The notes under the pieces: generated by a model
Told to the model about the DNA's origin: nothing
The model's input: only the letters and a program-made list of their open reading frames with translations
Database searches by the model: none
Made by a program: the position numbers and the translations under genes
Origin: Escherichia coli
Lineage (GTDB): Bacteria; Pseudomonadota; Gammaproteobacteria; Enterobacterales; Enterobacteriaceae
Assembly: GCF_029227855.1 (NCBI RefSeq)
Contig: NZ_CP074356.1
Length of the DNA stretch: 64,000 nt
Direction: 5' to 3' (one strand)
Shown: positions 10,020-31,830 of the stretch, piece by piece
How the letters are laid out: each line of letters opens with the position of its first letter
Position numbering within the stretch: the first letter of the stretch is position 1

Positions 10020-10021
10020 TT

Positions 10022-11458: not shown

Positions 11459-11558
11459 CCGTTGAATAATCAACCGGATTAATTCTCCGGTAAATAACGA
11501 AAAAACAAAATTGGCCGCTTCGGTCAGGGCCAACTATTGCCTGAAAAAGGGTAACGAT

Positions 11559-12929
11559 ATGAAAAAATTAACCTGCTTTAAAGCCTATGATATTCGCGGG
11601 AAATTAGGCGAAGAACTGAATGAAGATATTGCCTGGCGTATTGGGCGTGCCTATGGCGAATTTCTCAAACCGAAAACCATTGTGTTAGGCGGTGATGTCC
11701 GCCTCACCAGCGAAACCTTAAAACTGGCGCTGGCAAAAGGTTTACAGGATACGGGCGTCGATGTGCTGGATATTGGCATGTCCGGCACCGAAGAGATCTA
11801 TTTCGCCACGTTCCATCTCGGCGTGGCTGGCGGCATTGAAGTTACCGCCAGCCATAACCCGATGGATTACAACGGCATGAAACTGGTGCGCGAAGGGGCT
11901 CGCCCGATCAGCGGCGATACCGGACTGCGCGACGTCCAGCGTCTGGCAGAAGCCAATGACTTCCCTCCTGTCGATGAAACCAAACGCGGTCGCTATCAGC
12001 AAATCAATCTGCGTGACGCTTACGTTGATCACCTGTTCGGCTATATCAACGTCAAAAACCTCACGCCGCTCAAGCTGGTGATCAACTCCGGGAACGGCGC
12101 GGCGGGGCCGGTGGTGGACGCCATTGAAGCTCGCTTTAAAGCCCTCGGCGCACCCGTGGAATTGATCAAAGTGCACAACACGCCGGACGGGAATTTCCCC
12201 AACGGTATACCTAACCCGCTGCTGCCGGAATGTCGCGACGACACCCGCAATGCGGTCATCAAACACGGCGCGGATATGGGCATTGCTTTTGATGGCGATT
12301 TTGACCGCTGCTTCCTGTTTGACGAAAAAGGGCAGTTTATCGAGGGCTACTACATTGTCGGCCTGCTGGCAGAAGCGTTCCTCGAAAAAAATCCCGGCGC
12401 GAAGATCATCCACGATCCACGTCTCTCCTGGAACACCGTTGATGTGGTGACTGCCGCTGGCGGCACGCCGGTGATGTCGAAAACCGGACACGCCTTTATT
12501 AAAGAACGTATGCGCAAGGAAGACGCCATCTACGGTGGCGAAATGAGCGCTCACCATTACTTCCGCGATTTCGCTTACTGTGACAGCGGCATGATCCCGT
12601 GGCTGCTGGTCGCCGAACTGGTGTGCCTGAAAGGAAAAACGCTGGGCGAACTGGTGCGCGACCGGATGGCGGCGTTTCCGGCAAGCGGTGAGATCAACAG
12701 CAAACTGGCACACCCCGTTGAGGCGATTAACCGCGTGGAACAGCATTTTAGCCGTGAGGCGCTGGCGGTGGATCGCACCGATGGCATCAGCATGACCTTT
12801 GCCGACTGGCGCTTTAACCTGCGCTCCTCCAACACCGAACCGGTGGTGCGGTTGAATGTGGAATCGCGCGGCGATGTACCGCTGATGGAAGCGCGAACGC
12901 GAACTCTGCTGACGTTGCTGAACGAGTAA
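11559..12929 (+). CDS. manB: Phosphomannomutase
   Basis: 456 aa from [14 protein letters not shown]; active-site TASHNP motif; the ORF track's upstream start at 11511 is a likely over-extension. Confidence 0.93.
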
Positions 12930-12983
12930 TGTCGGATCTTCCCTTACCCCACTGCGGGTAAGGGGCTAATAACAGGAACAACG

Positions 12984-14378
12984 ATGACAAATCTAAAAAA
13001 GCGCGAGCGAGCGAAAACCAATGCATCGTTAATCTCTATGGTGCAACGCTTTTCAGATATCACCATCATGTTTGCCGGGCTATGGCTGGTTTGCGAAGTC
13101 AGCGGACTGTCATTCCTCTACATGCACCTGTTGGTGGCGCTGATTACGCTGGTGGTGTTCCAGATGCTGGGCGGCATCACCGATTTTTATCGCTCATGGC
13201 GCGGTGTTCGGGCAGCGACAGAATTTGCCCTGCTGCTACAAAACTGGACCTTAAGCGTGATTTTCAGCGCCGGACTGGTGGCGTTCAACAATGATTTCGA
13301 CACGCAACTGAAAATCTGGCTGGCGTGGTATGGGCTGACCAGCATCGGACTGGTGGTTTGCCGTTCGTGTATTCGCATTGGTGCGGGCTGGCTGCGTAAT
13401 CATGGCTATAACAAGCGCATGATTGCGGTGGCGGGGGATTTAGCCGCCGGACAAATGCTGCTTGAGAGCTTCCGTAATCAGCCGTGGTTAGGGTTTGAAG
13501 TGGTGGGCGTTTACCACGACCCGAAACCGGGTGGCGTTTCTAACGACTGGGCGGGTAATCTGCAACAGCTGGTCGAGGATGCGAAAGCGGGCAAGATTCA
13601 TAACGTCTATATCGCGATGCAAATGTGCGACGGCGCACGAGTGAAAAAACTGGTCCATCAACTGGCGGATACCACCTGTTCGGTGCTGCTGATCCCCGAT
13701 GTCTTTACCTTCAACATTCTCCATTCCCGTATCGAAGAGATGAACGGCGTACCGGTGGTGCCGCTGTATGACACGCCGCTTTCCGGGGTTAACCGCCTGC
13801 TCAAACGTGCGGAAGATATTGTGCTGGCGACGCTTATCCTGCTGCTGATCTCCCCGGTGCTGTGCTGCATTGCGCTGGCGGTAAAACTGAGCTCACCGGG
13901 GCCGGTTATTTTCCGCCAGACTCGCTACGGCATGGATGGCAAGCCGATCAAAGTGTGGAAGTTCCGTTCTATGAAAGTGATGGAGAACGACAAAGTGGTG
14001 ACTCAGGCGACGCAGAACGATCCGCGCGTTACTAAAGTGGGGAACTTTCTGCGCCGCACTTCGCTGGATGAACTGCCGCAGTTTATCAATGTGCTGACTG
14101 GCGGGATGTCGATTGTGGGGCCACGTCCGCACGCCGTGGCGCATAACGAACAATATCGCCAGCTCATTGAAGGCTACATGCTGCGCCATAAGGTGAAACC
14201 GGGCATTACCGGCTGGGCGCAGATTAATGGCTGGCGTGGCGAAACCGACACGCTGGAGAAAATGGAAAAACGCGTCGAGTTCGACCTTGAGTACATCCGC
14301 GAATGGAGCGTCTGGTTCGATATCAAAATCGTTTTCCTGACGGTATTCAAAGGCTTCGTTAACAAAGCGGCATATTGA
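12984..14378 (+). CDS. wcaJ: UDP-glucose:undecaprenyl-phosphate glucose-1-phosphate transferase WcaJ
   Basis: 464 aa membrane protein with C-terminal bacterial sugar-transferase domain (PRPHAVAHNEQY...). Confidence 0.93.
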   Translation: MTNLKKRERAKTNASLISMVQRFSDITIMFAGLWLVCEVSGLSFLYMHLLVALITLVVFQMLGGITDFYRSWRGVRAATEFALLLQNWTLSVIFSAGLVAFNNDFDTQLKIWLAWYGLTSIGLVVCRSCIRIGAGWLRNHGYNKRMIAVAGDLAAGQMLLESFRNQPWLGFEVVGVYHDPKPGGVSNDWAGNLQQLVEDAKAGKIHNVYIAMQMCDGARVKKLVHQLADTTCSVLLIPDVFTFNILHSRIEEMNGVPVVPLYDTPLSGVNRLLKRAEDIVLATLILLLISPVLCCIALAVKLSSPGPVIFRQTRYGMDGKPIKVWKFRSMKVMENDKVVTQATQNDPRVTKVGNFLRRTSLDELPQFINVLTGGMSIVGPRPHAVAHNEQYRQLIEGYMLRHKVKPGITGWAQINGWRGETDTLEKMEKRVEFDLEYIREWSVWFDIKIVFLTVFKGFVNKAAY

Positions 14379-14379
14379 T

Positions 14380-15858
14380 ATGAGCTTACGTGAAAAAACC
14401 ATCACCGGCGCGAAGTGGTCGGCGATTGCCACGGTGATCATCATCGGCCTCGGGTTGGTGCAGATGACCGTGCTGGCGCGGATTATCGACAACCACCAGT
14501 TCGGCCTGCTTACCGTGTCTCTGGTGATTATCGCGCTGGCAGATACGCTTTCTGACTTCGGTATCGCTAACTCGATTATTCAGCGAAAAGAAATCAGCCA
14601 CCTTGAACTCACCACGTTGTACTGGTTGAACGTCGGGCTGGGGCTTGTGGTGTGCGTGGCGGTGTTTTTGTTGAGTGATGCCATTGGCGACATGCTGAAT
14701 AACCCGGACCTGGCACCGTTGATTAAAACATTGTCGCTGGCGTTTGTGGTGATCCCCCACGGGCAGCAGTTCCGCGCGTTGATGCAAAAAGAGCTGGAGT
14801 TCAACAAAATTGGCATGATCGAAACCAGCGCGGTGCTGGCGGGCTTCACTTTTACTGTGGTTAGCGCCCATTTCTGGCCGCTGGCAATGACTGCGATCCT
14901 CGGTTATCTGGTCAATAGTGCGGTAAGAACGCTGCTGTTTGGCTACTTTGGCCGCAAAATTTATCGCCCCGGTCTGCACTTCTCGCTGGCGTCGGTAGCA
15001 CCGAACTTACATTTTGGTGCCTGGCTGACGGCGGACAGCATCATCAACTATCTCAACACCAACCTTTCAACGCTGGTGCTGGCGCGTATTCTCGGCGCGG
15101 GCGTGGCAGGGGGATACAACCTGGCGTACAACGTGGCCATTGTGCCGCCGATGAAGCTGAACCCAATCATCACCCGCGTGTTGTTTCCGGCATTTGCCAA
15201 AATTCAGGACGACACCGAAAAGCTGCGCGTCAACTTCTACAAGCTGCTGTCGGTGGTGGGGATTATCAACTTTCCGGCGCTGCTGGGGCTGATGGTGGTG
15301 TCGAATAACTTTGTACCGCTGGTCTTTGGTGAGAAGTGGAACAGCATTATTCCGGTGCTGCAATTGCTGTGTGTGGTGGGTCTGCTGCGTTCCGTGGGTA
15401 ACCCGATTGGTTCGCTGCTGATGGCTAAAGCGCGGGTCGATATCAGCTTTAAATTCAACGTATTCAAAACCTTTCTGTTTATTCCGGCGATTGTTATAGG
15501 TGGGCAGATGGCGGGCGCAATCGGCGTCACGCTCGGCTTCCTGCTGGTGCAGATTATCAACACCATTCTGAGCTATTTCGTGATGATTAAACCGGTTCTT
15601 GGTTCCAGTTATCGCCAGTACATCCTGAGTTTATGGCTGCCGTTTTATCTCTCGCTGCCGACGCTGGTGGTCAGTTATGCGCTGGGCATTGTGCTGAAAG
15701 GGCAACTGGCGCTGGGGATGCTGCTGGCGGTGCAAATAGCCGCGGGCGTGCTGGCGTTTGTGGTGATGATTGTGCTGTCGCGCCATCCGCTGGTGGTGGA
15801 GGTGAAGCGTCAGTTTTGTCGCAGCGAAAAAATGAAAATGCTTTTACGGGCGGGGTGA
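14380..15858 (+). CDS. wzxC: Colanic acid repeat-unit flippase WzxC
   Basis: 492 aa polytopic membrane protein; position after wcaJ. Confidence 0.92.
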   Translation: MSLREKTITGAKWSAIATVIIIGLGLVQMTVLARIIDNHQFGLLTVSLVIIALADTLSDFGIANSIIQRKEISHLELTTLYWLNVGLGLVVCVAVFLLSDAIGDMLNNPDLAPLIKTLSLAFVVIPHGQQFRALMQKELEFNKIGMIETSAVLAGFTFTVVSAHFWPLAMTAILGYLVNSAVRTLLFGYFGRKIYRPGLHFSLASVAPNLHFGAWLTADSIINYLNTNLSTLVLARILGAGVAGGYNLAYNVAIVPPMKLNPIITRVLFPAFAKIQDDTEKLRVNFYKLLSVVGIINFPALLGLMVVSNNFVPLVFGEKWNSIIPVLQLLCVVGLLRSVGNPIGSLLMAKARVDISFKFNVFKTFLFIPAIVIGGQMAGAIGVTLGFLLVQIINTILSYFVMIKPVLGSSYRQYILSLWLPFYLSLPTLVVSYALGIVLKGQLALGMLLAVQIAAGVLAFVVMIVLSRHPLVVEVKRQFCRSEKMKMLLRAG

Positions 15859-15929
15859 ATGGTTGTTTTAGGCTCCGGCAATAAAAACAACAACATAACC
15901 TCACCTGGCACCAAATTTATGAGGAAAAA

Positions 15930-17210
15930 ATGAAATTACTGATTCTGGGCAACCACACTTGCGGCAACCGCGGCGACAGCGCCATCTTGCGCGGCTTACT
16001 TGATGCCATCAACATCCTCAATCCACATGCCGAAGTGGACGTAATGAGCCGCTATCCGGTCAGTTCTTCCTGGCTGCTCAACCGCCCGGTAATGGGCGAT
16101 CCGCTGTTCCTGCAAATGAAACAACACAACAGCGCGGCGGGCGTTGTCGGGCGCGTTAAAAAAGTCCTCCGTCGCCGCTACCAGCATCAGGTATTGCTCT
16201 CACGCGTCACCGACACTGGCAAGCTGCGTAATATCGCCATCGCCCAGGGATTCACCGACTTCGTGCGCTTGCTGTCAGGTTACGACGCCATTATTCAGGT
16301 CGGCGGATCGTTTTTTGTCGATCTCTATGGTGTGCCGCAGTTTGAACACGCACTTTGCACGTTTATGGCGAAAAAGCCGCTGTTTATGATTGGTCACAGC
16401 GTCGGTCCCTTCCTGGATGAGCAATTTAACCAACTGGCAAACTACGTTTTTGGTCACTGCGACGCGCTGATCCTGCGCGAATCGGTCAGCCTTGATTTGA
16501 TGAAACGCAGCAATATCACTACCGCAAAAGTTGAACATGGCGTCGATACCGCGTGGCTGGTCGATCACCACATAGAAGATTTCACCGCCAGCTATGCCGT
16601 CCAACACTGGCTGGACGTTGCCGCACAACAGAAAACGGTAGCAATTACCTTGCGCGAACTGGCACCGTTCGACAAACGTCTCGGCACCACTCAACAAGCG
16701 TATGAAAAAGCCTTTGCCGGGGTGGTCAATCACATTCTCGACGAAGGGTATCAGGTGATTGCGCTCTCCACCTGTACGGGCATCGACAGCTATAACAAAG
16801 ACGACCGCATGGTGGCGCTCAACCTGCGCCAGCACATCAGCGATCCTGCCCGTTACCACGTAGTGATGGATGAACTCAACGATCTGGAAATGGGCAAAAT
16901 TCTCGGTGCCTGTGAACTCACCGTCGGCACGCGCCTGCACTCAGCCATTATCTCGATGAACTTTGCCACTCCGGCGATTGCCATCAACTACGAACATAAA
17001 TCCGCCGGGATCATGCAGCAGTTGGGGCTGCAAGAGATGGCGATTGATATCCGTCATTTACTGGACGGCAGCTTGCAAGCGATGGTTGCGGATACCTTAG
17101 GCCAGCTTCCGGTGCTGAACGCACGACTTAGCGAAGCCGTCAGTCGTGAGCGTCAGACAGGAATGCAGATGGTGCAGTCCGTACTGGAACGCATCGGGGA
17201 GGTGAAATGA
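15930..17210 (+). CDS. wcaK: Colanic acid biosynthesis pyruvyl transferase WcaK
   Basis: 426 aa ORF; matches recalled WcaK. Confidence 0.9.
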   Translation: MKLLILGNHTCGNRGDSAILRGLLDAINILNPHAEVDVMSRYPVSSSWLLNRPVMGDPLFLQMKQHNSAAGVVGRVKKVLRRRYQHQVLLSRVTDTGKLRNIAIAQGFTDFVRLLSGYDAIIQVGGSFFVDLYGVPQFEHALCTFMAKKPLFMIGHSVGPFLDEQFNQLANYVFGHCDALILRESVSLDLMKRSNITTAKVEHGVDTAWLVDHHIEDFTASYAVQHWLDVAAQQKTVAITLRELAPFDKRLGTTQQAYEKAFAGVVNHILDEGYQVIALSTCTGIDSYNKDDRMVALNLRQHISDPARYHVVMDELNDLEMGKILGACELTVGTRLHSAIISMNFATPAIAINYEHKSAGIMQQLGLQEMAIDIRHLLDGSLQAMVADTLGQLPVLNARLSEAVSRERQTGMQMVQSVLERIGEVK

Positions 17211-18427
17211 AGGTCGGCTTCTTTTTACTGAAATTCCCGCTGTCTTCGGAAACCTTCGTCCTCAACCAAATCACTGCGTTTATTGATATGGGCTTTGAGG
17301 TGGAGATTGTCGCGCTGCAAAAAGGCGATACAGAGAACACCCACGCGGCATGGACGAAATACAACCTTGCCGCCAGAACCCGCTGGTTACAGGACGAACC
17401 TACGGGCAAAGTGGCGAAGCTGCGCCACCGCGTCAGCCAGACGTTACGTGGCATTCATCGTAAAAATACCTGGCAGGCGCTCAACCTCAAACGCTATGGT
17501 GCCGAGTCGCGGAACCTGATTTTGTCTGCCATTTGCGGCCAGGTCGCAACACCGTTTCGCGCCGATGTGTTCATCGCTCATTTTGGCCCGGCGGGGGTAA
17601 CCGCAGCAAAACTACGGGAACTGGGTGTCATTCGCGGCAAAATTGCCACTATCTTCCACGGCATTGATATCTCCAGTCGGGAAGTGCTCAACCACTACAC
17701 TCCCGAATATCAGCAACTGTTCCGCCGTGGCGACCTGATGCTACCGATCAGCGATCTTTGGGCCGGAAGGCTGCAAAAAATGGGCTGCCCGAGGGAAAAA
17801 ATTGCCGTATCGCGCATGGGCGTGGACATGACGCGCTTTAGCCCGCGTCCGGTGAAAGCGCCCGCAACGCCGCTGGAAATCATATCCGTCGCACGCTTAA
17901 CCGAGAAAAAAGGTCTGCATGTAGCGATTGAAGCCTGCCGTCAGTTGAAAGAGCAGGGCGTGGCATTTCGTTATCGCATCCTCGGCATTGGCCCGTGGGA
18001 ACGACGCCTGCGCACCCTCATCGAACAATATCAACTGGAAGATGTGGTAGAGATGCCGGGCTTTAAACCGAGCCACGAAGTGAAAGAGATGCTCGATGAC
18101 GCGGATGTTTTCCTGCTGCCTTCGGTAACGGGTGCGGATGGCGATATGGAAGGCATTCCAGTGGCGCTAATGGAAGCGATGGCGGTCGGCATTCCGGTGG
18201 TTTCTACTCTGCATAGCGGAATACCGGAACTAGTGGAGGCTGACAAATCCGGCTGGCTGGTGCCTGAGAACGATGCTCGCGCACTGGCACAACGTCTGGC
18301 GGCATTTAGCCAACTGGACACTGACGAACTGGCTCCGGTCGTCAAACGTGCGCGCGAAAAAGTCGAACACGATTTTAACCAGCAGGTGATTAATCGAGAA
18401 CTCGCCAGTTTGTTACAGGCTTTATAG
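17207..18427 (+). CDS. wcaL: Colanic acid biosynthesis glycosyltransferase WcaL (GT4)
   Basis: 406 aa ORF; start overlaps wcaK stop. Confidence 0.9.
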
Positions 18428-18437
18428 AGGAGAACGC

Positions 18438-19832
18438 ATGCCATTTAAAAAACTCTCCCGACGCACCTTCCTGACGGCAAGCTCGGCGCTTGCCTTCCTC
18501 CATACCCCTTTCGCCCGTGCACTTCCTGCCCGAGCAAGCGTTAACATTAACGATTACAATCCACACGACTGGATTGCTTCATTTAAACAAGCCTTCAGCG
18601 AAGGGCAAACGGTCGTCGTGCCTGCCGGATTGGTTTGCGACAATATCAACACCGACATCTTCATTCCTGCAGGTAAAACGTTACACATCCTTGGAAGCCT
18701 GCGCGGCAACGGCAGAGGGCGATTTGTCTTACAGGACGGCAGCCAGGTGACAGGGGAGGAGGGCGGCAGTATGCATAACATCACCCTGGATGTGCGTGGT
18801 TCTGACTGCACCATCAAAGGGCTGGCGATGAGCGGCTTTGGTCCGGTAACGCAGATTTATATCGGCGGCAAAAACAAACGGGTCATGCGCAACCTGACCA
18901 TCGATAACCTGACCGTTAGCCACGCTAATTACGCCATCTTACGCCAGGGATTTCATAACCAGATTATCGGTGCCAACATCACCAACTGTAAGTTCAGCGA
19001 CTTACAGGGCGACGCCATTGAATGGAACGTGGCGATTAACGACCGTGATATTTTGATATCCGACCACATCATCGAGCGCATCAACTGTACCAACGGCAAA
19101 ATCAACTGGGGCATCGGCATAGGCCTTGCGGGGAGTACTTATGATAATAACTACCCGGAAGACCAGGCAGTGAAAAACTTTGTCGTGGCGAATATCACGG
19201 GATCGGATTGTCGACAGTTGATCCATGTTGAAAATGGTAAACATTTTGTTATTCGTAATATCAAAGCCCGCAATATCACGCCGGATTTCAGTAAGAAAGC
19301 AGGTATTGATAACGCCACAGTTGCTATTTATGGTTGTGACAACTTTGTGATTGATAATATTGAAATGATTAATAGTGCCGGGATGTTAATCGGCTATGGG
19401 GTAATTAAAGGCAAATATCTCTCGATACCGCAGAATTTCCGGGTGAATAATATTCAACTGGATAATACTCATCTTGCTTATAAATTGCGCGGCATTCAAA
19501 TCTCCGCCGGGAATGCTGTCTCCTTTGTGGCGCTGACTAACATTGAGATGAAGCGTGCCTCGCTTGAGCTACACAATAAACCGCAACACCTTTTTATGCG
19601 TAATATCAAGGTGATGCAGGAATCCGCAGTTGGACCCGCATTGAGCATGAACTTCGACATGCGCAAAGACGTTCGCGGCGTGTTTATGGCGAAAAAAGAA
19701 ACACTGCTATCTCTTGCAAATGTTCATGCGGTGAATGAAAAAGGACAAAGCTCGGTCGATATCGACAGGATTAATCACCATATTGTTAATGTGGAAAAGA
19801 TTAACTTTAGATTGCCGGAACGGAGAGAGTAG
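18438..19832 (+). CDS. wcaM: Colanic acid biosynthesis protein WcaM (twin-arginine-type signal, predicted beta-helix)
   Basis: 464 aa ORF; N-terminus [15 protein letters not shown] resembles a Tat signal; last gene of the cluster. Confidence 0.9.
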
Positions 19833-20006: not shown

Positions 20007-20900
20007 ATGACGAATTTAAAAGCAGTTATTCCTGTAGCGGGTCTTGGGATGCATATGTTGCCTGCCACTAAGGCGATTCCCAAAGAGATGCTACCCATCG
20101 TCGACAAGCCAATGATTCAGTACATTGTTGACGAGATTGTGGCTGCAGGGATCAAAGAAATCCTCCTGGTAACTCACGCGTCCAAGAACGCGGTCGAAAA
20201 CCACTTCGACACCTCTTATGAATTAGAATCTCTCCTTGAGCAGCGCGTGAAGCGTCAACTGCTTGCGGAAGTGCAGTCCATCTGTCCTCCGGGCGTGACC
20301 ATTATGAACGTGCGTCAGGGCGAACCTTTAGGTTTAGGCCACTCCATTTTATGTGCACGACCTGCTATTGGTGACAACCCATTTGTCGTGGTGCTGCCAG
20401 ACGTTGTGATCGACGACGCGAGTGCCGACCCGCTGCGTTACAACCTTGCTGCCATGATTGCGCGCTTCAACGAAACGGGCCGCAGCCAGGTGCTGGCAAA
20501 ACGTATGCCGGGTGACCTCTCTGAATACTCTGTCATCCAGACCAAAGAGCCGCTGGACCGTGAAGGTAAGGTCAGCCGCATTGTTGAATTTATCGAAAAA
20601 CCAGATCAGCCGCAGACGCTGGACTCAGACATCATGGCCGTTGGCCGCTATGTGCTTTCTGCCGATATTTGGCCGGAGCTAGAACGCACTCAGCCTGGTG
20701 CATGGGGACGTATCCAACTGACAGATGCTATTGCCGAACTGGCGAAAAAACAGTCCGTTGAAGCCATGCTGATGACCGGCGACAGTTACGACTGCGGTAA
20801 AAAAATGGGTTATATGCAAGCGTTCGTGAAGTATGGACTACGCAACCTGAAAGAAGGGGCGAAGTTCCGTAAAGGGATTGAGAAGCTGTTAAGCGAATAA
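20007..20900 (+). CDS. galF: UTP-glucose-1-phosphate uridylyltransferase regulatory subunit GalF
   Basis: 297 aa from [30 protein letters not shown]; matches recalled GalF. Confidence 0.95.
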
Positions 20901-21157
20901 TGAAAATCTAACCGAATGTAACGGTTGATAAGAAAATTGTAACGGCAGTGAGGATTCGTGGCGAAAGTAATTGTTGCGAATATTCCTGCCGTTGTTTTAT
21001 ATAAACAATCAGAATAACAACGAGTTAGCAATAGGATTTTAGTCAAAGTTTTCCAGGATTTTCCTTGTTTCCAGAGCGGATTGGTAAGACAATTAGCGTT
21101 TGAATTTTTCGGGTTTAGCGCGAGTGGGTAACGCTCGTCACATCGTAGACATGCATG

Positions 21158-21196
21158 CAGTACTCTGGTAGCTGTAAAGCCAGGGGCGGTAGCGTG
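21158..21196 (+). promoter_or_regulatory. JUMPStart element with ops (RfaH-dependent antitermination) upstream of the O-antigen cluster
   Basis: cagtactctggtagctgtaaagccaggggcggtagcgtg contains the ops core GGCGGTAGCGTG at 21185..21196. Confidence 0.85.
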
Positions 21197-21336
21197 TCTA
21201 GTTCAATCCGAGTAAATTAAAAATAATAGTTTTGGAAAAATTGTCTTTATAATGTTAACAAAGCAAGAGTAGGTAATACATATCGTTTTGACATGTATTG
21301 CACTTAAAGAAAACATATCAATTAAATTATCATACT

Positions 21337-22362
21337 ATGCTTATTTACAATACAATATTTGTCTTTTTATCATTTCTTGCACTTTTAGATTTAAGTCATA
21401 AAAAAAATTTGTTATTTTTTTTATTTCCTTGTTTTATATTACTACTGTTAACTGCTATTCGTGGTAATGGAGGAGATGATTTTTATGTGTATGAAAAATA
21501 TTTTAACGCTCTTCCTAATGAAATTTTTAACTATGGATATGGTTATTATAGTTTAAATATGTTTGTTAAAAATTTTGGAGAGTATCCTTTTTTTATTATC
21601 ATTTCATCAATAATATGCATAACTCTTCAGGCAATTTTTATTTATCGTGAGACTGAAAAACCAACTCTGGTTTTGTTTTTATTTTATTCAACTAGCTTTT
21701 TATGGTTGGATTTTATTTTAATTAGGCAGTCAATTTCCGTTGGTTTTTTTATTTTGGCAATATCATTTTTCAAAAATAATAAAAAAATTTTTGCCTGTCT
21801 GTTTTTGATTCTATCTTCATTATTTCATGAGACCGCTATTTTTGCTGGAGTAGTTTTTTATATTTTATACAGAGCCGAGAAGGCAGGTTTTCTTTTTACA
21901 ATTGGCTCGGTATTAATTATTGCACCATTTTTATCTGATATAATCACTATCATAAATGATATGACGATAAAAAATAATAATATAACTCTCTATCTGGAGC
22001 AGCGTACCTTACCAAGCATTGCAAATGTAATTGAGTTAACAATAGCATTTGTTGCATTTTATATAATTAATAAAAATTCCGTGTTTAGAGAGAGTAATGA
22101 GTATAAAATATATAAAAGTATACTATATTCTTCACTATGCATACTATTATTGTCTTATACAATCCCATCATTGGCTAGATTCCTAGAATTTTTTCGTTTT
22201 TTTTACTTCATTTTAGTAGTTAGAATGCTAATGCAATTTAATGTGAGAAGTAGATATCTTTTTTTTGTAATTATACTAGCGTACTGTTTTATGAGACTTA
22301 ATAGCTTCATAAATCAATTTGATTCTGGTTTTGATTATATTTATAATGGAAAAATACTGTGA
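21337..22362 (+). CDS. wzy: Putative O-antigen polymerase Wzy (EpsG-like polytopic membrane protein)
   Basis: Very hydrophobic AT-rich ORF; N-terminal RGNGGDDFYVYEKYF resembles the EpsG/Wzy family; ATG at 21337 chosen over the TTG at 21298. Confidence 0.55.
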   Translation: MLIYNTIFVFLSFLALLDLSHKKNLLFFLFPCFILLLLTAIRGNGGDDFYVYEKYFNALPNEIFNYGYGYYSLNMFVKNFGEYPFFIIISSIICITLQAIFIYRETEKPTLVLFLFYSTSFLWLDFILIRQSISVGFFILAISFFKNNKKIFACLFLILSSLFHETAIFAGVVFYILYRAEKAGFLFTIGSVLIIAPFLSDIITIINDMTIKNNNITLYLEQRTLPSIANVIELTIAFVAFYIINKNSVFRESNEYKIYKSILYSSLCILLLSYTIPSLARFLEFFRFFYFILVVRMLMQFNVRSRYLFFVIILAYCFMRLNSFINQFDSGFDYIYNGKIL

Positions 22363-23228
22363 CTATATTATTTTCTGTTATTACTCCTACCTATAATAGG
22401 GCAGATGAGTTAAGCTCATTGTTCAAAAGTCTTAATAATCAAGAGGGTATCGAATTCGAATGGGTGATAATTGATGATGGTTCTGAAGATCATACACAAC
22501 AACAAGTTAATGACTTCAAAAAACATAATAAAAACATCACAGATATAAAATATTTTTATCAAGAGAATAAAGGTAAAAATTCTGCTGTAATTAGAGGGAT
22601 TCAGAATGCTTCCGGCGATTATATTGTGGTGATTGATAGCGATGATTATTTATTGGATGATGCTTTAATAAGAGTAAAAAATATATTAGATGAAGAGAGT
22701 GTTAATGGCGATGATAAAATAATTGGCATTTCAGGTGTTAAAGTTAAAAGTGATTTCACACCTGTAAGTTATATTAGCAACTCTTCGGCATTGCGAATGA
22801 GTCATTATGAGTGGTTTTATAAGTTTCAGCGGTTAGGTGATCGGATTGACTTTTATAAAGCCCGAGTGCTTAAAGAGAAAATATTTAATGCATTTCCAAA
22901 GGAAAAGTTTATTACAGAAGACGCATATTGGTTGGACCTCGTTGGGGAAAAAATTTTCATAAATGAACCGTTATTAGTAATAAAATATTTAGAGGGAGGG
23001 CTTAGTTCAAGTTACTCATTACTCCTGCGAAACAGTCCTTTTGGAACATCATATTATTATTATATTCTATTAATTAATGCTGATAATTTTAAAACAAAAC
23101 TTAAAGCATCATTATTGATGATGTACTATATATTTGTTACCATATTAAAAAATAGTAATATAGTAATTGGGTTATTGTCACTCATGTTATTTCCAATCTT
23201 ATGTATAATAAAATTCTTTCGAAGCTAA
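22359..23228 (+). CDS. Glycosyltransferase family 2 (O-antigen)
   Basis: 289 aa; SVITPTYNRADEL and DSDD motifs typical of GT2; GTG start overlapping the wzy stop. Confidence 0.75.
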   Translation: MTILFSVITPTYNRADELSSLFKSLNNQEGIEFEWVIIDDGSEDHTQQQVNDFKKHNKNITDIKYFYQENKGKNSAVIRGIQNASGDYIVVIDSDDYLLDDALIRVKNILDEESVNGDDKIIGISGVKVKSDFTPVSYISNSSALRMSHYEWFYKFQRLGDRIDFYKARVLKEKIFNAFPKEKFITEDAYWLDLVGEKIFINEPLLVIKYLEGGLSSSYSLLLRNSPFGTSYYYYILLINADNFKTKLKASLLMMYYIFVTILKNSNIVIGLLSLMLFPILCIIKFFRS

Positions 23229-24406
23229 GAAACACTATTCTTCCTTGTTTCACTCTAGGAACGTCGACGATTTTTTTCTTTGCGATAGGTTTCTTCTTTG
23301 GTATAAATGAAAAATCTGATTTTATATTATTTACGATTACTTTACTTTCAACCATTGGAACTATTCTTCAAATTTCTTGGTATGGATTGTTACCTCGTTT
23401 GAGTTCGAGTTCAAGCTTAAAATTTTTAGGTTATATTATTTCTAATGGTTTTATCTACTGTTTGATCATAAATACCCTACCATTTGTGATTTTAACTCTG
23501 AACTTTACAAACTTTTTTTTTGCAGGGTGTCTCTACTCTTTATTTTTCCAACTGCATCAGTATCTTAAGAATGTTTTTGTTTATCTTGGGCGGCTTAAAG
23601 CATTTTATATTTTTGATGCCATCGGCTATGCCATATGTGTTATAAGTATTACTGTGTTCCAAAAATATCTATTACATTCAAACCCTCAGGATTTATTTGT
23701 TCTGCTTTCGTTATGTTGGCTTTTAATAGTAATTGGTGAGGTCGTACATCTTAAACTATATATTAATTATGACATATCTGTAAAGCCTGTTTATGTATGT
23801 ATTATTCCAACATGGAAAACAAGGATTGCAAACAGTGGTTTTATTGTGAAAGATCTTTTAACTGCGTATGCGCTTAATATACTTGCGCCGGTAGGCGGTT
23901 TAACTATATATTCATACGCAAGTAAGATTTCAACAGCTGTTTTTCAATTATTCTCTCAATATAAAGTAAATGCTTGGGTGGGCAGCATAAGAAAAAAAAG
24001 GTTAAGTGAAGTAGAATACGGTGATATAAAAAAAGTGTCATTATCTTCTTCAATTGATTTTTGTATTTTTCAGATCGTTGCATGGCTTTGTATCTTACCT
24101 ATTATATTATATAATGGCACAAATATAAATATTGAATGGTATGTATTAAGTATTATTACTGGTGGATTACTATACTTGATACAATCAATGGAACAGCCTT
24201 ATGCTAGATTTATTTATATGTCACGACATTTTACCGATATTGCCATCGCAGATGGAATAAATTTTATTATTTATATGGTTTTCTTTTCATATGGATTGTT
24301 AATGTTAAATGTATATTATCTATTTTTAGGTATTATATTAGCTCAATTATGTTCACTAGTTACTTATTCTTTATTTTGCAAGAGGTTGTTTAGGAATGAT
24401 ACCTAA
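23201..24406 (+). CDS. wzx: Putative O-antigen flippase Wzx (polytopic membrane protein)
   Basis: 401 aa hydrophobic ORF with many predicted TM segments; position within O-antigen cluster; the Wzx/Wzy assignment between the two membrane proteins is inference. Confidence 0.5.
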   Translation: MYNKILSKLRNTILPCFTLGTSTIFFFAIGFFFGINEKSDFILFTITLLSTIGTILQISWYGLLPRLSSSSSLKFLGYIISNGFIYCLIINTLPFVILTLNFTNFFFAGCLYSLFFQLHQYLKNVFVYLGRLKAFYIFDAIGYAICVISITVFQKYLLHSNPQDLFVLLSLCWLLIVIGEVVHLKLYINYDISVKPVYVCIIPTWKTRIANSGFIVKDLLTAYALNILAPVGGLTIYSYASKISTAVFQLFSQYKVNAWVGSIRKKRLSEVEYGDIKKVSLSSSIDFCIFQIVAWLCILPIILYNGTNINIEWYVLSIITGGLLYLIQSMEQPYARFIYMSRHFTDIAIADGINFIIYMVFFSYGLLMLNVYYLFLGIILAQLCSLVTYSLFCKRLFRNDT

Positions 24407-25052
24407 AATAATACATTACTGTTGGTTCGGGGGCGGGGATAAACCTGCTTTAGTTAAAAAATGTATGGGGACATGGGAAAAAGTCTTGCCTGGTTGGGAT
24501 ATTATTGAATGGAACGAAGATAATTCGCCAGTATCAGTTCCTTATGTAAAAAATGCGTTAGAAGATAAACGATATGCATTTGCTGCTGATTATGTAAGAT
24601 TCTATGCGCTAAAAACCATGGGAGGAGTTTATCTTGATACTGATATGGAATTGATCAAAGATATTTCTCCGCTTTTGAATAATAAATTCTTTACAGCGAA
24701 AGAATCAGAGGAGCTTATTAATGCAGCAATAATGGGGAGTGAAAAAGATGGGAGATTTGTCAATTTAGTAATCCAAGAATTACAATTGCGCACAGGACAT
24801 ACTTACGAATCTATACCAAAAATACTTACTGATATATTTAATACAGGAAATGGATTTAAAGATGAAACAACCATTTATGATAAGGAATATTTTTATCCTT
24901 ATAATCCCTTTGATAATAAACGAAATGAAGTTAAACAACTTTTCTATTGTGATATAACTCCTCATACTTATGCCATTCATCACTGGCAACAAAGTTGGCA
25001 CTATACATTTCTTGAACGGGTTATTAACAGAATAAGGATGCTTATAAAGTGA
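24396..25052 (+). CDS. Glycosyltransferase, GT32-like sugar-binding family (DXD motif)
   Basis: 218 aa; IIHYCWFGG N-terminus and YLDTDME motif. Confidence 0.7.
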   Translation: MIPKIIHYCWFGGGDKPALVKKCMGTWEKVLPGWDIIEWNEDNSPVSVPYVKNALEDKRYAFAADYVRFYALKTMGGVYLDTDMELIKDISPLLNNKFFTAKESEELINAAIMGSEKDGRFVNLVIQELQLRTGHTYESIPKILTDIFNTGNGFKDETTIYDKEYFYPYNPFDNKRNEVKQLFYCDITPHTYAIHHWQQSWHYTFLERVINRIRMLIK

Positions 25053-25819
25053 GTGGAAATAAATTAATAAGCATAATTATGGCATCAAATAAAATAGATG
25101 AGTTTCTACCTCTGGCAATAAACTCAATTCTTGAACAAACATATCAAAATATCGAAGTGATTTTTGTTGCTAATGGTGATAAAGCTCACTGTATTAGTTT
25201 GTATATAAAAAATTTTTTTAAAGATGAGCGAATCAAAATTTATGAAACACCAATAGGCCAACTATCACATGCGCTTAACCTCGCTATTTCTAACGCATCG
25301 GGTGATTATATTGCCCGCATGGATGCTGATGACATTAGTTTACCTGAGCGATTAACTAAACAGTTGGAATATTTAAGGTCACATAATTTAGATATGGTAG
25401 GTTCGGATATAATTCACATAGATACAAATGGAGAAGTTATTGGGATTAAACATTATCCCAAAGGGTTAAATAAAATTAACAAACAATTGTATTTTAGGAA
25501 TACTTTTTCGCATAGCACTATACTAATCAAAAAAAAAATACTCATTTCAGCGAGAGGCTACAATGCTGGATTTAATTCAGAGGACTATGATCTCTGGTTA
25601 AGATTAAGACGGAAGAATATCAAATGGGATAATATGGAGGAATGCCTCTTAAAATATCGTATACATAGTGCATCTACACAAAGGAAGAGATTGGGTTACG
25701 CCGAAGTCGCGGGTTATTCTCTACGTGAATTTTTATTACGTTTCTCATTTATTGGTATTTTTTCTGTTTTAATTCATATTGTTAAAGTTTATATTAAATC
25801 ATCTTCTCATGAAGAATGA
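25049..25819 (+). CDS. Glycosyltransferase family 2 (O-antigen)
   Basis: 256 aa; GT2-like N-terminus and DADD motif; GTG start overlapping the upstream stop. Confidence 0.7.
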   Translation: MSGNKLISIIMASNKIDEFLPLAINSILEQTYQNIEVIFVANGDKAHCISLYIKNFFKDERIKIYETPIGQLSHALNLAISNASGDYIARMDADDISLPERLTKQLEYLRSHNLDMVGSDIIHIDTNGEVIGIKHYPKGLNKINKQLYFRNTFSHSTILIKKKILISARGYNAGFNSEDYDLWLRLRRKNIKWDNMEECLLKYRIHSASTQRKRLGYAEVAGYSLREFLLRFSFIGIFSVLIHIVKVYIKSSSHEE

Positions 25820-26010
25820 TTTATATTTTAGGATAATTAACTATTTAAATTAGAATCATTTGAGCAAACTTAGGTAACTCTATATAATACACAGCATTGC
25901 AAATGAGTAACATATTGGAATAGCCATTCAATGGTAATATTACAAATTGCTTTAATAATAATGGATCATTTAGCTATGGTGCAATATTTTCTTCTTGCGG
26001 AATTTTACCC

Positions 26011-27129
26011 ATGAAAATACTTCTAATAGGAAACCTCTCTGATACTATTGTATTATTCAGAGAGAAGTTAATAAGAGAGTTGATTAAAAAAAATATCACG
26101 GTTTATACATTAACGATGGATTCTAATCAAGAAAACTTCAACATCATTGCCAGCTACGGGGCCAAACCTGATTCATACTCTTTTTCTCGTTCAGGTACAA
26201 ATCCTTTTTCTGATATTTGGGATACATACAAATTAAATAAAAAAATAAAAAAAATAAAACCTGACGTTGTTCTTTCTTTTTTTCCAAAACCTGTTATTTA
26301 TGGTTCTTTAGCTGCTAAAATAGCAGGGGTGAAAAAAATATTTAGTCTCTTGGAAGGACTTGGTTTTTGCTATACGAATAATTCTAGTCCAATTAGTCTC
26401 AAAAGGAAGATATTAAAATGTATACAAACAATGCTATACAGAATTAGCTTGCCATTATGTAATAAAGTTTTTTTCTTAAACAAGGATGATTTTAATGATC
26501 TCATTATTGATAATAAAATAACCATAAAGAATTATGAAATAATTGGTGGAATTGGTGTTAATTTAGAAGAGTACAGTTATAAGCAACCAAAGATTGATAA
26601 AATACATTTTGGGATGGTTTCGCGATTACTAGTCGAGAAAGGTATTCGCGAATTTGTTTTGGCCGCGAGCCAGGTGAAAAAAAAATTTCCTGAGGTCGAA
26701 TTTAGTATTGCTGGCGCAATTGATGATAATCCTGGTGGTATAACCGAAGATGAGATAAAAAAATGGGAATCAGAGGGGGTTGTCAAATTTTTAGGTCAAG
26801 TTTCTAATGTTAAAAGTTATTTATCTAATATCTCTGTTTTCGTTTTGCCATCTTACCGAGAAGGCGTACCAAGAAGTACTCAAGAAGCGATGGCTATTGG
26901 GCTTCCAATAATTACAACTAATGTTCCTGGTTGTCGTGATACAATTATCAATATGGTAAATGGAATCATGATCCCACCATTTGATATTCAGTCTCTAGCG
27001 GACGCAATGGTATTTTTTATACAAAACCCTCAGAGTATAACAATAATGGGTAGAGAAAGTAGAATAATTGCAGAGAAAAAGTTTAATGAAATAGAAGCCG
27101 CGAATAAATTACTTAAATTAATAATCTAA
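26011..27129 (+). CDS. Glycosyltransferase family 4 (GT-B fold, O-antigen)
   Basis: 372 aa; C-terminal EGVPRSTQEAMAIGLPII resembles the GT4 EX7E region. Confidence 0.75.
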   Translation: MKILLIGNLSDTIVLFREKLIRELIKKNITVYTLTMDSNQENFNIIASYGAKPDSYSFSRSGTNPFSDIWDTYKLNKKIKKIKPDVVLSFFPKPVIYGSLAAKIAGVKKIFSLLEGLGFCYTNNSSPISLKRKILKCIQTMLYRISLPLCNKVFFLNKDDFNDLIIDNKITIKNYEIIGGIGVNLEEYSYKQPKIDKIHFGMVSRLLVEKGIREFVLAASQVKKKFPEVEFSIAGAIDDNPGGITEDEIKKWESEGVVKFLGQVSNVKSYLSNISVFVLPSYREGVPRSTQEAMAIGLPIITTNVPGCRDTIINMVNGIMIPPFDIQSLADAMVFFIQNPQSITIMGRESRIIAEKKFNEIEAANKLLKLII

Positions 27130-27159
27130 TATATAGATTAACATCTACCGGAGTGTTTT

Positions 27160-28179
27160 ATGGCTATTCTTGTTACTGGCGGAGTTGGTTATATCGCTTC
27201 GCACACTATTATAACTTTACTAGAAAAAGGTGAAGAAGTTATAATACTTGATAATTTATCAAATTCATTCTACGAATCTTTGCATAAAGTTAAAAAAATT
27301 ACCGGGTATGATAGTCGATTTTATAGAGGTGATATACTTGACAAAGAGCTCTTACGCAAAATATTCAAAGAAAACACTATTTCTGACGTAATTCATTTTG
27401 CAGGCTATAAATCTGTAAAAGAATCCATTTCTCACCCATTGAAATACTATCAAAATAACGTTTCTGGTACATTGTCATTAATAGATGCGATGGGGGAGGC
27501 TTGTGTAAAAAGTTTGATTTTTAGCTCATCAGCTACAGTATATGGTGAACCAGAAAGAATACCTTTAGATGAAAATTGCAGAATTGGAGGTACAACGAAT
27601 CCATACGGCACGTCCAAGTTATTCGTAGAAAAATTCCTTATTGATTATTCACATGCATTCCCTGATTTTAGAACTACCATCTTAAGATATTTCAACCCTG
27701 TCGGTGCTCATCCATCTGGTGAAATAGGGGAAGATCCCAATGGTATACCTAACAACTTAATGCCATATATATGTCAAGTTGCTATAGGGAAGCAACAACA
27801 CCTCACTATCTTTGGTAGCGATTATCCAACAAAAGATGGTACAGGTGTTCGTGATTATATCCATGTCATGGATCTTGCTGAAGGGCATGTTGCAGCGTTA
27901 GAACATCGAAATGAAGGAGCAAATTGCAAGATCTATAATCTCGGGACGGGCACAGGATACTCAGTACTGGAACTTGTTGATGCATTTCAAAGAGTTACTG
28001 CACGTAAAGTTCCATATGTATTCAGTAAACGACGACCTGGTGATATTGCTGAGTGTTGGTCTGATCCTTCTAAGGCTTATAGGGAACTTGGATGGAAAGC
28101 GAAGCGTGGGTTGGAAGAAATGGTTCGAGATGCCTGGAATTGGCAACAAAAGAATCCGAACGGTTATATAAAAGCATGA
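27160..28179 (+). CDS. gne: UDP-hexose 4-epimerase of the GalE/Gne family (likely UDP-GlcNAc/UDP-Glc 4-epimerase)
   Basis: 339 aa; Rossmann GGVGYIASH, catalytic YGTSK motif; located immediately upstream of gnd. Confidence 0.85.
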   Translation: MAILVTGGVGYIASHTIITLLEKGEEVIILDNLSNSFYESLHKVKKITGYDSRFYRGDILDKELLRKIFKENTISDVIHFAGYKSVKESISHPLKYYQNNVSGTLSLIDAMGEACVKSLIFSSSATVYGEPERIPLDENCRIGGTTNPYGTSKLFVEKFLIDYSHAFPDFRTTILRYFNPVGAHPSGEIGEDPNGIPNNLMPYICQVAIGKQQHLTIFGSDYPTKDGTGVRDYIHVMDLAEGHVAALEHRNEGANCKIYNLGTGTGYSVLELVDAFQRVTARKVPYVFSKRRPGDIAECWSDPSKAYRELGWKAKRGLEEMVRDAWNWQQKNPNGYIKA

Positions 28180-28297
28180 ATGCTCAATGGTATTTTTGTC
28201 AATCTTAAAAATTATCGATTTTATGTATCCTGAGTTAACATAGCATCTACATTGACCTGAGTTATGTTTCGCAGTATCACCCTGACAGGAGTAAACA

Positions 28298-29704
28298 ATG
28301 TCAAAGCAACAGATCGGCGTAGTCGGTATGGCAGTGATGGGGCGCAACCTTGCGCTCAACATCGAAAGCCGTGGTTATACCGTCTCTATTTTCAACCGTT
28401 CCCGTGAGAAGACGGAAGAAGTGATTGCCGAAAATCCAGGCAAGAAACTGGTTCCTTACTATACGGTGAAAGAGTTTGTTGAATCTCTGGAAACGCCTCG
28501 TCGCATCCTGTTAATGGTGAAAGCAGGTGCAGGCACGGATGCTGCTATTGATTCCCTCAAGCCGTACCTCGATAAAGGTGACATCATCATTGATGGTGGT
28601 AACACCTTCTTCCAGGACACCATTCGTCGTAACCGTGAGCTTTCTTCAGAAGGCTTTAACTTCATCGGTACCGGTGTCTCCGGTGGTGAAGAAGGTGCGC
28701 TGAAAGGTCCTTCCATTATGCCTGGTGGGCAGAAAGAAGCCTATGAACTGGTAGCGCCGATCCTGACCAAAATCGCCGCAGTAGCTGAAGACGGAGAGCC
28801 ATGCGTTACCTATATTGGTGCCGATGGTGCAGGTCACTATGTGAAGATGGTTCACAACGGTATTGAATACGGTGATATGCAACTGATTGCTGAAGCCTAT
28901 TCTCTCCTGAAAGGCGGCCTGAATCTCTCTAACGAAGAACTGGCACAGACCTTTACCGAGTGGAATAACGGTGAACTGAGTAGCTATCTGATCGACATCA
29001 CCAAAGATATCTTCACCAAAAAAGATGAAGACGGTAACTACCTGGTTGATGTGATCCTGGATGAAGCAGCAAACAAAGGTACGGGCAAATGGACCAGCCA
29101 GAGCGCGCTGGATCTCGGCGAACCACTGTCTCTGATTACCGAGTCTGTGTTTGCACGTTATATCTCTTCTCTGAAAGATCAGCGCGTTGCCGCATCTAAA
29201 GTTCTTTCTGGTCCGCAAGCGCAGCCGGCAGGCGACAAAGCTGAGTTCATTGAAAAAGTTCGCCGTGCGCTGTATCTGGGCAAAATCGTTTCTTACGCTC
29301 AGGGCTTTTCTCAGCTACGCGCCGCGTCTGAAGAGTACAATTGGGATCTGAACTACGGCGAAATCGCGAAGATTTTCCGTGCTGGTTGCATCATCCGTGC
29401 GCAGTTCCTGCAGAAAATCACCGATGCATATTCCGAAAACCCGCAGATCGCTAACCTGCTGCTGGCTCCGTACTTCAAGCAAATTGCCGATGACTACCAG
29501 CAGGCGCTGCGTGATGTCGTTGCTTATGCGGTACAGAACGGTATCCCGGTTCCGACCTTCGCCGCTGCGGTTGCCTATTATGACAGCTACCGTGCTGCTG
29601 TTCTGCCTGCGAATCTGATCCAGGCTCAGCGTGACTATTTTGGTGCGCATACTTATAAGCGCATTGATAAAGAAGGTGTGTTCCATACTGAATGGCTGGA
29701 TTAA
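28298..29704 (+). CDS. gnd: 6-phosphogluconate dehydrogenase, decarboxylating
   Basis: 468 aa; [28 protein letters not shown]-terminus; matches recalled Gnd. Confidence 0.97.
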
Positions 29705-29729
29705 TCTGATTTAACCAACAATAAATTGA

Positions 29730-29760
29730 GGCCCGGCGTATATTACGCCGGGCTTTTTTG
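29730..29760 (+). terminator. Rho-independent terminator downstream of gnd
   Basis: gcccggcg tatatta cgccgggc stem-loop followed by a run of six T. Confidence 0.8.
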
Positions 29761-30470
29761 TGCACAGAAAACCCCCAGCTAGGCTGGGGGTTCCGGAAAG
29801 CTTTCAGCTTTGAGCCAGTTATTAAAACCCCTTTTGATTTGTTAAAACACTTTGCGGTCTGGCAACTGCAAGTGTCAAACAAGAAATCAAAAGGGGGTCC
29901 CAATGGGGAACGAAAAGAGCTTAGCGCACACCCGATGGAACTGTAAATATCACATAGTTTTTGCGCCAAAATACCGAAGACAGGTGTTCTACAGAGAGAA
30001 GCGTAGAGCAATAGGCAGTATTTTGAGAAAGCTGTGTGAGTGGAAAAGCGTACGGATTCTGGAAGCTGAATGCTGTGCAGATCATATCCATATGCTTGTG
30101 GAGATCCCGCCCAAAATGAGCGTATCCGGCTTTATGGGATATCTGAAAGGGAAAAGCAGTCTGATGCTTTACGAGCAGTTTGGTGATTTGAAATTCAAAT
30201 ACAGGAACAGGGAGTTCTGGTGCAGAGGGTACTACGTCGATACGGTGGGTAAGAACACGGCGAAGATACAGGATTACATAAAGCACCAGCTTGAAGAGGA
30301 TAAAATGGGAGAGCAGTTATCGATTCCCTATCCGGGCAGCCCGTTTACGGGCCGTAAGTAACGAAGTTGGATGCAAATGTCAGATCGTGTGCGCCTGTTA
30401 GGGCGCGGCTGGTAAGAGAGCCTTATAGGCGCATTTGAAAAACCTCCGGCTATGCCGGAGGATATTTATT
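29761..30470 (+). mobile_element. IS200-type insertion sequence (IS200/IS605 family), boundaries approximate
   Basis: About 0.7 kb with a single Y1 HUH transposase ORF; left-end hairpin acccccagctaggctggggg and right-end hairpin cctccggctatgccggagg; no terminal inverted repeats, as expected for IS200. Confidence 0.75.
29903..30361 (+). CDS. tnpA: IS200 transposase TnpA (Y1 HUH)
   Basis: 152 aa from MGNEKSLAHTRWNCKYHIVFAPKYRRQVFY; HIHMLVEIPP (HUH) motif; essentially the recalled Salmonella IS200 TnpA. Confidence 0.92.
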   Translation: MGNEKSLAHTRWNCKYHIVFAPKYRRQVFYREKRRAIGSILRKLCEWKSVRILEAECCADHIHMLVEIPPKMSVSGFMGYLKGKSSLMLYEQFGDLKFKYRNREFWCRGYYVDTVGKNTAKIQDYIKHQLEEDKMGEQLSIPYPGSPFTGRK

Positions 30471-30654
30471 TTTACCAATTATCTTATAGACTAAATTTCA
30501 CTGCTTAATATTAACTTAATAAATATCAGCTATTCTTATAAAGAAATTCTGAATTGTTTTTCGTTGCGTTGACCATCCAACAACGTAGCGTTAAAACTTT
30601 TAGCTCTTATCAGGATGCTAAAAACATCATGATTCACAGTTAAGTTAATTCTGA

Positions 30655-31830
<1,176 letters not shown>

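Follow-up and report, generated by a model that had tools for sequence, protein, structure and literature searches.

The question raised by this locus is whether the short non-coding region ahead of its O-antigen genes is the site at which transcription of the gene cluster comes under the control of RfaH. The DNA analyzed here, a stretch of 64 kb referred to below as the window, is part of an Escherichia coli chromosome and runs from the colanic-acid genes through galF and the O23 O-antigen cluster to gnd, ugd, wzzB, and the his genes. The colanic-acid operon, wzc to wcaM, occupies positions 1 to 19832, and the his operon lies on the opposite strand, 3' of wzzB. The region in question, 20901 to 21336, is precisely the 436-bp intergenic region between galF, with its stop at 20900, and wzy, with its start at 21337. 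The galF gene (20007 to 20900, plus strand) encodes UTP-glucose-1-phosphate uridylyltransferase, as judged from a Pfam NTP_transferase match and from the PGAP annotation in strains 13TMH22 and JNEC-KY178, and it is the conserved 5'-side neighbor of the O-antigen locus. Across its first 34,087 bases the window is identical to JNEC-KY178 (NZ_AP045174.1; a clinical strain from Japan) save for two SNPs, at 23162 and 25730, each of which falls within an O23 glycosyltransferase gene.

The O23 genes extend from 21337 to 28179 on the plus strand and were assigned from Pfam matches and from PGAP names in two O23 genomes. Seven genes of 25 to 37% GC are present, the first of which is wzy (21337 to 22362; an EpsG-family gene by Pfam, PGAP "O23 family"). 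It is followed by a GT2 glycosyltransferase gene (22359 to 23228; Pfam), wzx (23201 to 24406; assigned by its PGAP "O23 family" name only, with no Pfam match), a GT32 gene (24396 to 25052), a second GT2 gene (25049 to 25819), a GT4 gene (26011 to 27129), and the epimerase gene gne/galE (27160 to 28179), the last four assigned by Pfam. With wzx, wzy, four glycosyltransferase genes, and wzzB downstream, the galF-gnd interval has the composition of a Wzx/Wzy-dependent cluster, and a review of the E. coli O antigens places O23 among the clusters with gne (PMC7685785). JUMPStart, ops, and RfaH are mentioned nowhere in that review. Four of the six junctions between O23 genes overlap or abut. In this otherwise tightly packed cluster, a 191-bp non-coding gap of 27% GC (25820 to 26010) separates the second GT2 gene from the GT4 gene and contains a promoter-like TTGAGC-17-TATAAT at 25860 to 25888; the gap could mark the join of two acquired modules or could hold an internal promoter.

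Several further features of the window were noted. The wzxC-wcaK spacer of the colanic-acid operon (15859 to 15929) is 71 bp long in the window and 565 bp long in 13TMH22, a difference of about 493 bp, and the identity between the two O23 strains is 96.2% in the colanic-acid region upstream of this spacer and 98.8% downstream of it. Judged from these alignments, the surroundings of the spacer may be a recombination break, as the shift in identity suggests. Further Rfam matches above threshold were an algC RNA motif just before cpsG (11505 to 11554), a histidine operon leader on the minus strand (40133 to 40256), and the sRNA STnc240 (42995 to 43069).

An earlier note, made from the sequence of this DNA, had described a 39-bp JUMPStart-like sequence with an ops core about 140 bp upstream of the first O-antigen gene, and had proposed alignment to the JUMPStart consensus as a check. 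The JUMPStart element is reportedly to be traced to work by Hobbs and Reeves in 1994. The alignment bore the description out. The 39 bp from 21158 to 21196 on the plus strand, CAGTACTCTGGTAGCTGTAAAGCCAGGGGCGGTAGCGTG, match Rfam family RF01707 ("JUMPstart") over its full length (model positions 1 to 38 of 38) with a score of 60 bits against a gathering score of 35, and with an E value of 2.7e-11 in the whole window and 2.1e-13 in the intergenic region alone. The 3' end of the element, 21185 to 21196, is an exact copy of the 12-nucleotide ops sequence, GGCGGTAGCGTG, on the plus, non-template strand. This is the single exact copy in the window; the eight further matches all carry two mismatches, and no second ops was found between 21197 and 34335 when up to two mismatches were allowed. 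The ops element lies in non-coding leader DNA, on the coding strand ahead of the O23 cluster and in the orientation of all of the cluster genes, and the distance from its end to the wzy ATG is exactly 140 nt (21197 to 21336).

The sequence requirements of ops have been defined by mutagenesis: recruitment of RfaH needs G4, G5, A7, and G8, and in part C3 and T6, while pausing needs T11 and G12 (PMC5995543). The bases for RfaH contact, C3 to G8, and the pause dinucleotide T11-G12 are all present in the window in the consensus form GGCGGTAGnnTG, placing the predicted RNA polymerase pause, U11, at position 21195. Sequence, structure model, orientation, and position together support the identification of 21158 to 21196 as a bona fide JUMPStart/ops element. 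It is, in this sense, an ordinary feature: the element is well characterized, and the serogroup cluster in which this copy occurs is a known one. Compared with the JUMPStart elements of other O-antigen loci (K-12 rfb/O16, O7, and CFT073 O6), it is the same 39-bp element in the same place relative to galF, with the same hairpin and the same ops 12-mer. It differs from the usual JUMPStart by one private change in the unpaired 5' part, CAGTACT in place of CAGTGCT or CAGTGCA; its loop has GTAAA, as do those of K-12 and CFT073, while many other loci have GTTAA. The spacing between ops and the first gene also differs, being 140 nt in the window and about 60 to 75 nt in O6 and in clusters that begin with rfbB.

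Upstream of the element, the leader contains the predicted parts of a new transcription unit. A long terminator-like hairpin follows galF on the plus strand at 20941 to 21003, with the hairpin itself at 20941 to 20994, formed by AACGGCAG and CTGCCGTT and followed by GUUUUAUAU, a U-rich run after the stem. The RNA from 20925 to 21010 folds with an energy of -28 kcal/mol (z of -5.25), and none of 200 shuffled sequences was as stable. In a diverged locus, L006, the arms of the hairpin are kept while inner stem bases have changed. From this modeled fold, the hairpin is a likely terminator for galF, and its presence implies that the O-antigen operon needs a promoter of its own. A conserved block at 21046 to 21100 is the candidate for this promoter; it is kept across the O16, O113, O6, and other loci, including some whose sequences diverge directly 3' of it. 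A standard promoter scan of 20700 to 21500 reported no site within the conserved block, and a permissive hexamer scan was therefore needed. The best candidate on the plus strand combines a -35 TTGTTT (21065 to 21070) and a -10 GACAAT (21088 to 21093) with a 17-bp spacer, for a predicted start at about 21099 to 21100. An alternative combines TTGGTA (21081 to 21086) with AATTTT (21103 to 21108), for a predicted start at about 21115 to 21118, and its -10 is not conserved in loci L005 and L007. The hexamer matches of these candidates are weak, at 7 of 12 positions.

Two estimates of the transcription start from other strains fall near these predictions. Marolda and Valvano, in 1998, are said to have reported a 173-nt leader before rmlB in O7, which would map to about 21099 in the window. 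A transcription-unit start derived from RNA-seq in CFT073 lies 67 nt upstream of ops G1 (PMC9765446) and maps by alignment to about 21118. The estimates lie about 20 nt apart, and on either of them ops is transcribed 67 to 86 nt after initiation and is present on the non-template strand. A literature search for a mapped start or for a function of the JUMPStart stem-loop returned generic mentions only. Near the 5' end of the predicted transcript, the minimum-free-energy fold of 21099 to 21339 contains a small leader hairpin on the plus strand (21120 to 21138; GCGAGUG-GGUAA-CGCUCGU), which in L006 reads ACGAGCG/CGCTCGT, a change from a U.G pair to a C-G pair. As for the view in the earlier note that the element marks the operon boundary, JUMPStart does precede the O23 cluster, but the transcriptional 5' boundary would be the promoter, about 60 to 90 nt upstream of JUMPStart.

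Taken together, these features make it very probable that the galF-wzy region is a typical cis-acting leader of the kind that precedes enterobacterial O-antigen operons. The sequences of all the cis elements and their register, orientation, and conservation were computed in this analysis, while the loading of RfaH and its effect on elongation are taken from published work on an almost identical leader. Under this explanation, transcription of galF would end at the terminator-like hairpin (20941 to 21003), and a weak, conserved, sigma-70-type promoter within 21046 to 21100 would start a new transcript at about 21099 to 21118, the exact start being an estimate. After about 70 to 90 nt the polymerase would reach JUMPStart, and the transcription bubble would expose ops on its non-template strand, where it would form a tiny DNA hairpin with a C3:G8 pair and T6 flipped out and cause a pause at U11 (21195). 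The paused complex would then recruit RfaH, whose C-terminal domain would refold and could bind a ribosome. Staying on the polymerase, RfaH would suppress pausing and exclude NusG, and hence Rho, and it would carry the polymerase through the 25 to 37% GC, H-NS-prone O23 genes (21337 to 28179) and probably on into gnd, ugd, and wzzB.

The molecular steps of this scheme are those drawn from published mutagenesis and structures, in which ops bases 3 to 8 touch RfaH via a small hairpin in the non-template strand that has T6 flipped out, the pause at U11 is due to T11-G12, and RfaH then remains bound and suppresses pausing; it has also been proposed that RfaH may bring ribosomes to messages without ribosome-binding sites (PMC5995543). 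In vivo, ChIP-seq in CFT073 has placed RfaH loading at the same 12-mer in the O-antigen leader, downstream of a sigma-70 peak and a transcription-unit start (PMC9765446). The O-antigen operon of CFT073 is coated by H-NS/StpA, and RfaH helps RNA polymerase through it; without rfaH, polymerase traveling ratios (5.4 kb downstream) fall to 0.1 to 0.34 of those of the wild type for the wzx, kps, and rfa operons (PMC9765446). From the galF stop through the last ops base, the leader in the window is near-identical to those of CFT073 and K-12 in alignment. The rfaH gene itself lies outside the 64-kb window, and a species-wide check of 5,426 complete E. coli genomes detected it in 5,425 of them. No Shine-Dalgarno sequence was detected by anti-Shine-Dalgarno duplex energy before wzy (21337; +1.7 kcal/mol) or wzx (23201; +1.5 kcal/mol), while the energies of most colanic-acid genes were -4 to -12 kcal/mol; the lack of such a sequence at wzy and wzx fits the RfaH-mediated recruitment of ribosomes proposed in PMC5995543. 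By analogy with CFT073, we infer that the O23 operon of the window's strain would depend on RfaH. The window shares with the targets listed for the RfaH/ops system in CFT073 (rfaQ/waa, the O-antigen operon, wza, kps, hly, and others) the sequence GGCGGTAGnnTG, carried by the non-template strand of a 5' leader, and what follows is likewise a long operon, AT-rich and horizontally acquired, whose ribosome-binding sites are poor; no structural difference was noted.

The extent of RfaH-modified transcription in the window can be approached in the same way. In CFT073 the RfaH ChIP peak covers wzx through gndA, ugd, and wzzB (PMC9765446), and read-through of gnd, ugd, and wzzB would be expected in the window by analogy. 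The annotated stretch with gnd, an IS200C insertion, ugd, and wzzB occupies 28298 to 32956 on the plus strand. The insertion (about 29760 to 30464; tnpA at 29903 to 30361) is located between the gnd terminator (about 29731 to 29759) and ugd and points in the direction of the operon. JNEC-KY178 carries it, with 24 places in that genome matching the query, whereas the other O23 genome, 13TMH22, lacks it; an Rfam match to "STnc490" at 29770 to 29893 corresponds to the left end of the insertion. Because it lies inside a stretch that is crossed by RfaH-bound polymerase in CFT073, the insertion might affect the expression of ugd and wzzB. A terminator scan of 21000 to 33300 gave counts equal to those expected from shuffled sequence; the obvious gnd terminator escaped it, and it therefore says little about where RfaH-modified transcription ends. 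A search for Rut-like regions with C in excess of G found no strong site within the O23 genes, with the best sites in ugd, and no conclusion on Rho sites was drawn from it.

A second full JUMPStart/ops element was observed in JNEC-KY178 (NZ_AP045174.1; positions 2259 to 2297 of locus L132), with a score of 57.3 bits and the loop AGCTAAAAA. It precedes wza by 178 nt and window position 1 by about 2.9 kb, so the colanic-acid operon at 1 to 19832 is headed by an element of the same kind. In CFT073, binding of RfaH to the ops element of wza requires the deletion of hns and stpA (PMC9765446).

The ops sequence makes up only the 3' end of JUMPStart, and the alternative that retains most weight is that JUMPStart works mainly or additionally as a structured RNA, the contact of ops DNA with RfaH being then only part of the story. 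The Rfam consensus structure places a hairpin at 21165 to 21183 on the plus strand, with the stem CUGGU (21165 to 21169) paired with GCCAG (21179 to 21183) around a 9-nt loop, AGCUGUAAA, that contains a degenerate second GGUAGC. This hairpin, or a longer stem at 21146 to 21200, might act as a pause or anti-backtracking hairpin, as a protein site, or as an mRNA stabilizer. Across 24 aligned enteric-type copies, the stem is paired in 99.2% of cells, with changes on both sides in seven cells and double changes in two pairs, whereas slid controls, with partners shifted by one to three columns, were 21 to 62% paired; the 24 copies had been chosen by eye on loop similarity, not on pairing, which tempers the result. 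A cruder test on unselected sites pointed the same way. A scan of one genome per species for GGGGCGGTAGCGTG returned at least 120 stretches of DNA, and among the 119 listed exact sites, from diverse genomes, 56 had a stem of at least 5 bp with its 3' arm ending in the register of the hairpin, at the first G of the pattern. At control offsets among the same listed sites, the corresponding counts were 9 to 17 at 5 nt or more away and 10 to 31 within 3 nt. The register-locked stems were found in Enterobacterales, Aeromonas, Idiomarina, Pseudomonas/Stutzerimonas, Marinobacter, and Nitrincola, and included unrelated stem sequences (CTGGT/GCCAG, CAGGT/GCCTG, CAGGA/TCCTG, CAAGA/TCTTG, CACTGG/TCGGTG, and TGATGG/CCATCG). 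A fixed register shared by at least six unrelated stem sequences argues for a geometric rather than a sequence constraint.

The geometry itself places the RNA stem close to the pause. The stem closes 2 nt before ops G1 and therefore 12 nt behind U11, so that it could fold within the RNA exit channel just when the polymerase arrives at ops. In his-type hairpin-stabilized pauses, the spacing of the pause hairpin is roughly 11 nt. The likeness, a 5-bp RNA stem ending 12 nt before U11, is a lead only, and membership in this class is not claimed. The ops pause differs from these pauses in that it is described as biochemically distinct and works without a hairpin in vitro, where 12 nt of ops on a synthetic scaffold are enough for both pausing and RfaH loading (PMC5995543). 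That study and the other structural and biochemical work on RfaH consulted here used such minimal ops scaffolds, and the JUMPStart hairpin is not addressed in them. On the other side, JUMPStart was listed by Weinberg et al. (2010) as a likely RNA motif of unknown mechanism, and the leader folds better than shuffled sequences (z of -4.1 and -3.5). Weighing these points, we regard a mainly or additionally structural role as possible but rather unlikely. At a similarly tentative level, the 5' half of JUMPStart might be a register-locked nascent-RNA hairpin that cooperates with ops by prolonging the pause or limiting backtracking.

The longer stem was also observed in the fold of the leader. It encloses the whole of JUMPStart (21146 to 21200) by pairing UAGACAUGC with GCGUGUCUA, and the fold of 21140 to 21205 has an energy of -25.8 kcal/mol (z of -3.5). 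Its 3' arm consists of the last five bases of ops and four serogroup-specific bases (21197 to 21200), and the stem is only partly formable in K-12, which speaks against a general role for it. An A at 21149 that is private to O23 (G in K-12 and CFT073) pairs in this stem with the T at 21197 of O23 (C in K-12 and CFT073); this apparent pair of compensatory changes, seen in the alignment, may also be a coincidence.

Far less probable is the proposal that the sequence has been conserved solely as a homology anchor for swaps of O-antigen clusters and has no regulatory role in this strain. The comparison of genomes gives this proposal its appeal. In a megablast search with the 436-bp spacer, matches were found in 3,572 of 5,426 complete E. 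coli genomes, which share the upstream 296 bp, and only 20 span the last 140 bp. The match ended at query base 296, which is window position 21196 and the last base of ops, in 26 of 30 sampled rows; two more ended at 297 and 301. A 61-bp JUMPStart probe was found in 5,425 of 5,426 genomes, at a median of three places per genome, and its match ended at probe base 57 (21196) in 23 of 40 sampled rows. In an alignment of eight E. coli loci with differing first genes (rfbB, wzx O113, a neuD-like gene, a GT2 gene, and wzy O23), the core CTGGTAGCTGT-A/T-AAGCCAGGGGCGGTAGC-G/A-TG is unchanged in all eight, and similarity is wholly gone from the next base. By these comparisons, the last base of JUMPStart is the apparent border between widely shared E. 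coli DNA and serogroup-specific DNA. However, locus L008 keeps JUMPStart intact between diverged flanks, which indicates that the element is selected in its own right. The same element also heads unrelated operons such as wza, occurs with covarying stems in other genera, and lies in the near-identical leader of CFT073 at which binding of RfaH has been shown experimentally (PMC9765446). The role of JUMPStart at the junction is better seen as a consequence of its regulatory role: being needed in every serogroup, it is the last conserved DNA, and its end coincides with the left-hand break for exchange of O-antigen clusters.

The proposal that ops is vestigial in this strain, with O23 transcription arising from an AT-rich, serogroup-specific promoter downstream and RfaH never being loaded, is very unlikely. 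It concerns the serogroup-specific part of the leader, 21197 to 21336 on the plus strand, which is 140 nt long, has 24% GC, and is common to only 20 of the 5,426 genomes. Its start brings the abrupt fall in GC that the earlier note had placed right after the element and that was recovered here, from 52% in 21100 to 21199 to 25% in 21200 to 21299, with 18 to 28% onward. By feature, GC is 25.5% in wzy and 30 to 37% in the other O23 genes, as against 52% in galF and 50% in gnd. Since the spacer upstream of the promoter block (20900 to 21100) also has only 35 to 38% GC, JUMPStart occupies a small GC-rich island and does not mark a simple step in GC. Within this AT-rich DNA, a perfect -10 TATAAT at 21248 to 21253 could give some ops-independent transcription, and promoter-like sites are present at 21327 to 21356 and 21344 to 21373. 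None of these downstream sites has a good -35 at the right spacing, however, and promoter-like sites are as frequent in the cluster as expected from shuffled sequence (41 versus 42.7). Moreover, the perfect preservation of the upstream promoter block and of ops is unexpected for a vestige, and the sigma-70 peak and transcription-unit start of CFT073 are upstream of ops (PMC9765446). No Shine-Dalgarno sequence was detected by anti-Shine-Dalgarno duplex energy before wzy (21337; +1.7 kcal/mol) or wzx (23201; +1.5 kcal/mol), while the energies of most colanic-acid genes were -4 to -12 kcal/mol; the lack of such a sequence at wzy and wzx fits the RfaH-mediated recruitment of ribosomes proposed in PMC5995543.

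A chance match to ops/JUMPStart is excluded by the number of exact 12-mers expected (about 0.008 in 128 kb of two-strand sequence, by our own arithmetic), by the Rfam E value of 2.7e-11, and by the presence of the element at the orthologous position in thousands of genomes. Within the sequence that was analyzed, no evidence was found against the reading of the region as an RfaH-recruiting leader.

For the O23 locus itself, this reading matters little, as such a leader is the expected regulatory region of an E. coli O-antigen operon. By analogy with the characterized leader, the element predicts that O23 expression, and hence serum resistance and virulence, would depend on RfaH. The comparison also resolves to one base, 21197, the point at which O23-specific DNA begins, and the conserved segment from galF to JUMPStart forms the left arm of the recombination that switches serogroups. 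What the hairpin half of JUMPStart does is a matter for the whole family rather than for the copy in the window: if the hairpin does cooperate with ops, it might widen the time window in which scarce RfaH can load on the backtrack-prone ops pause.
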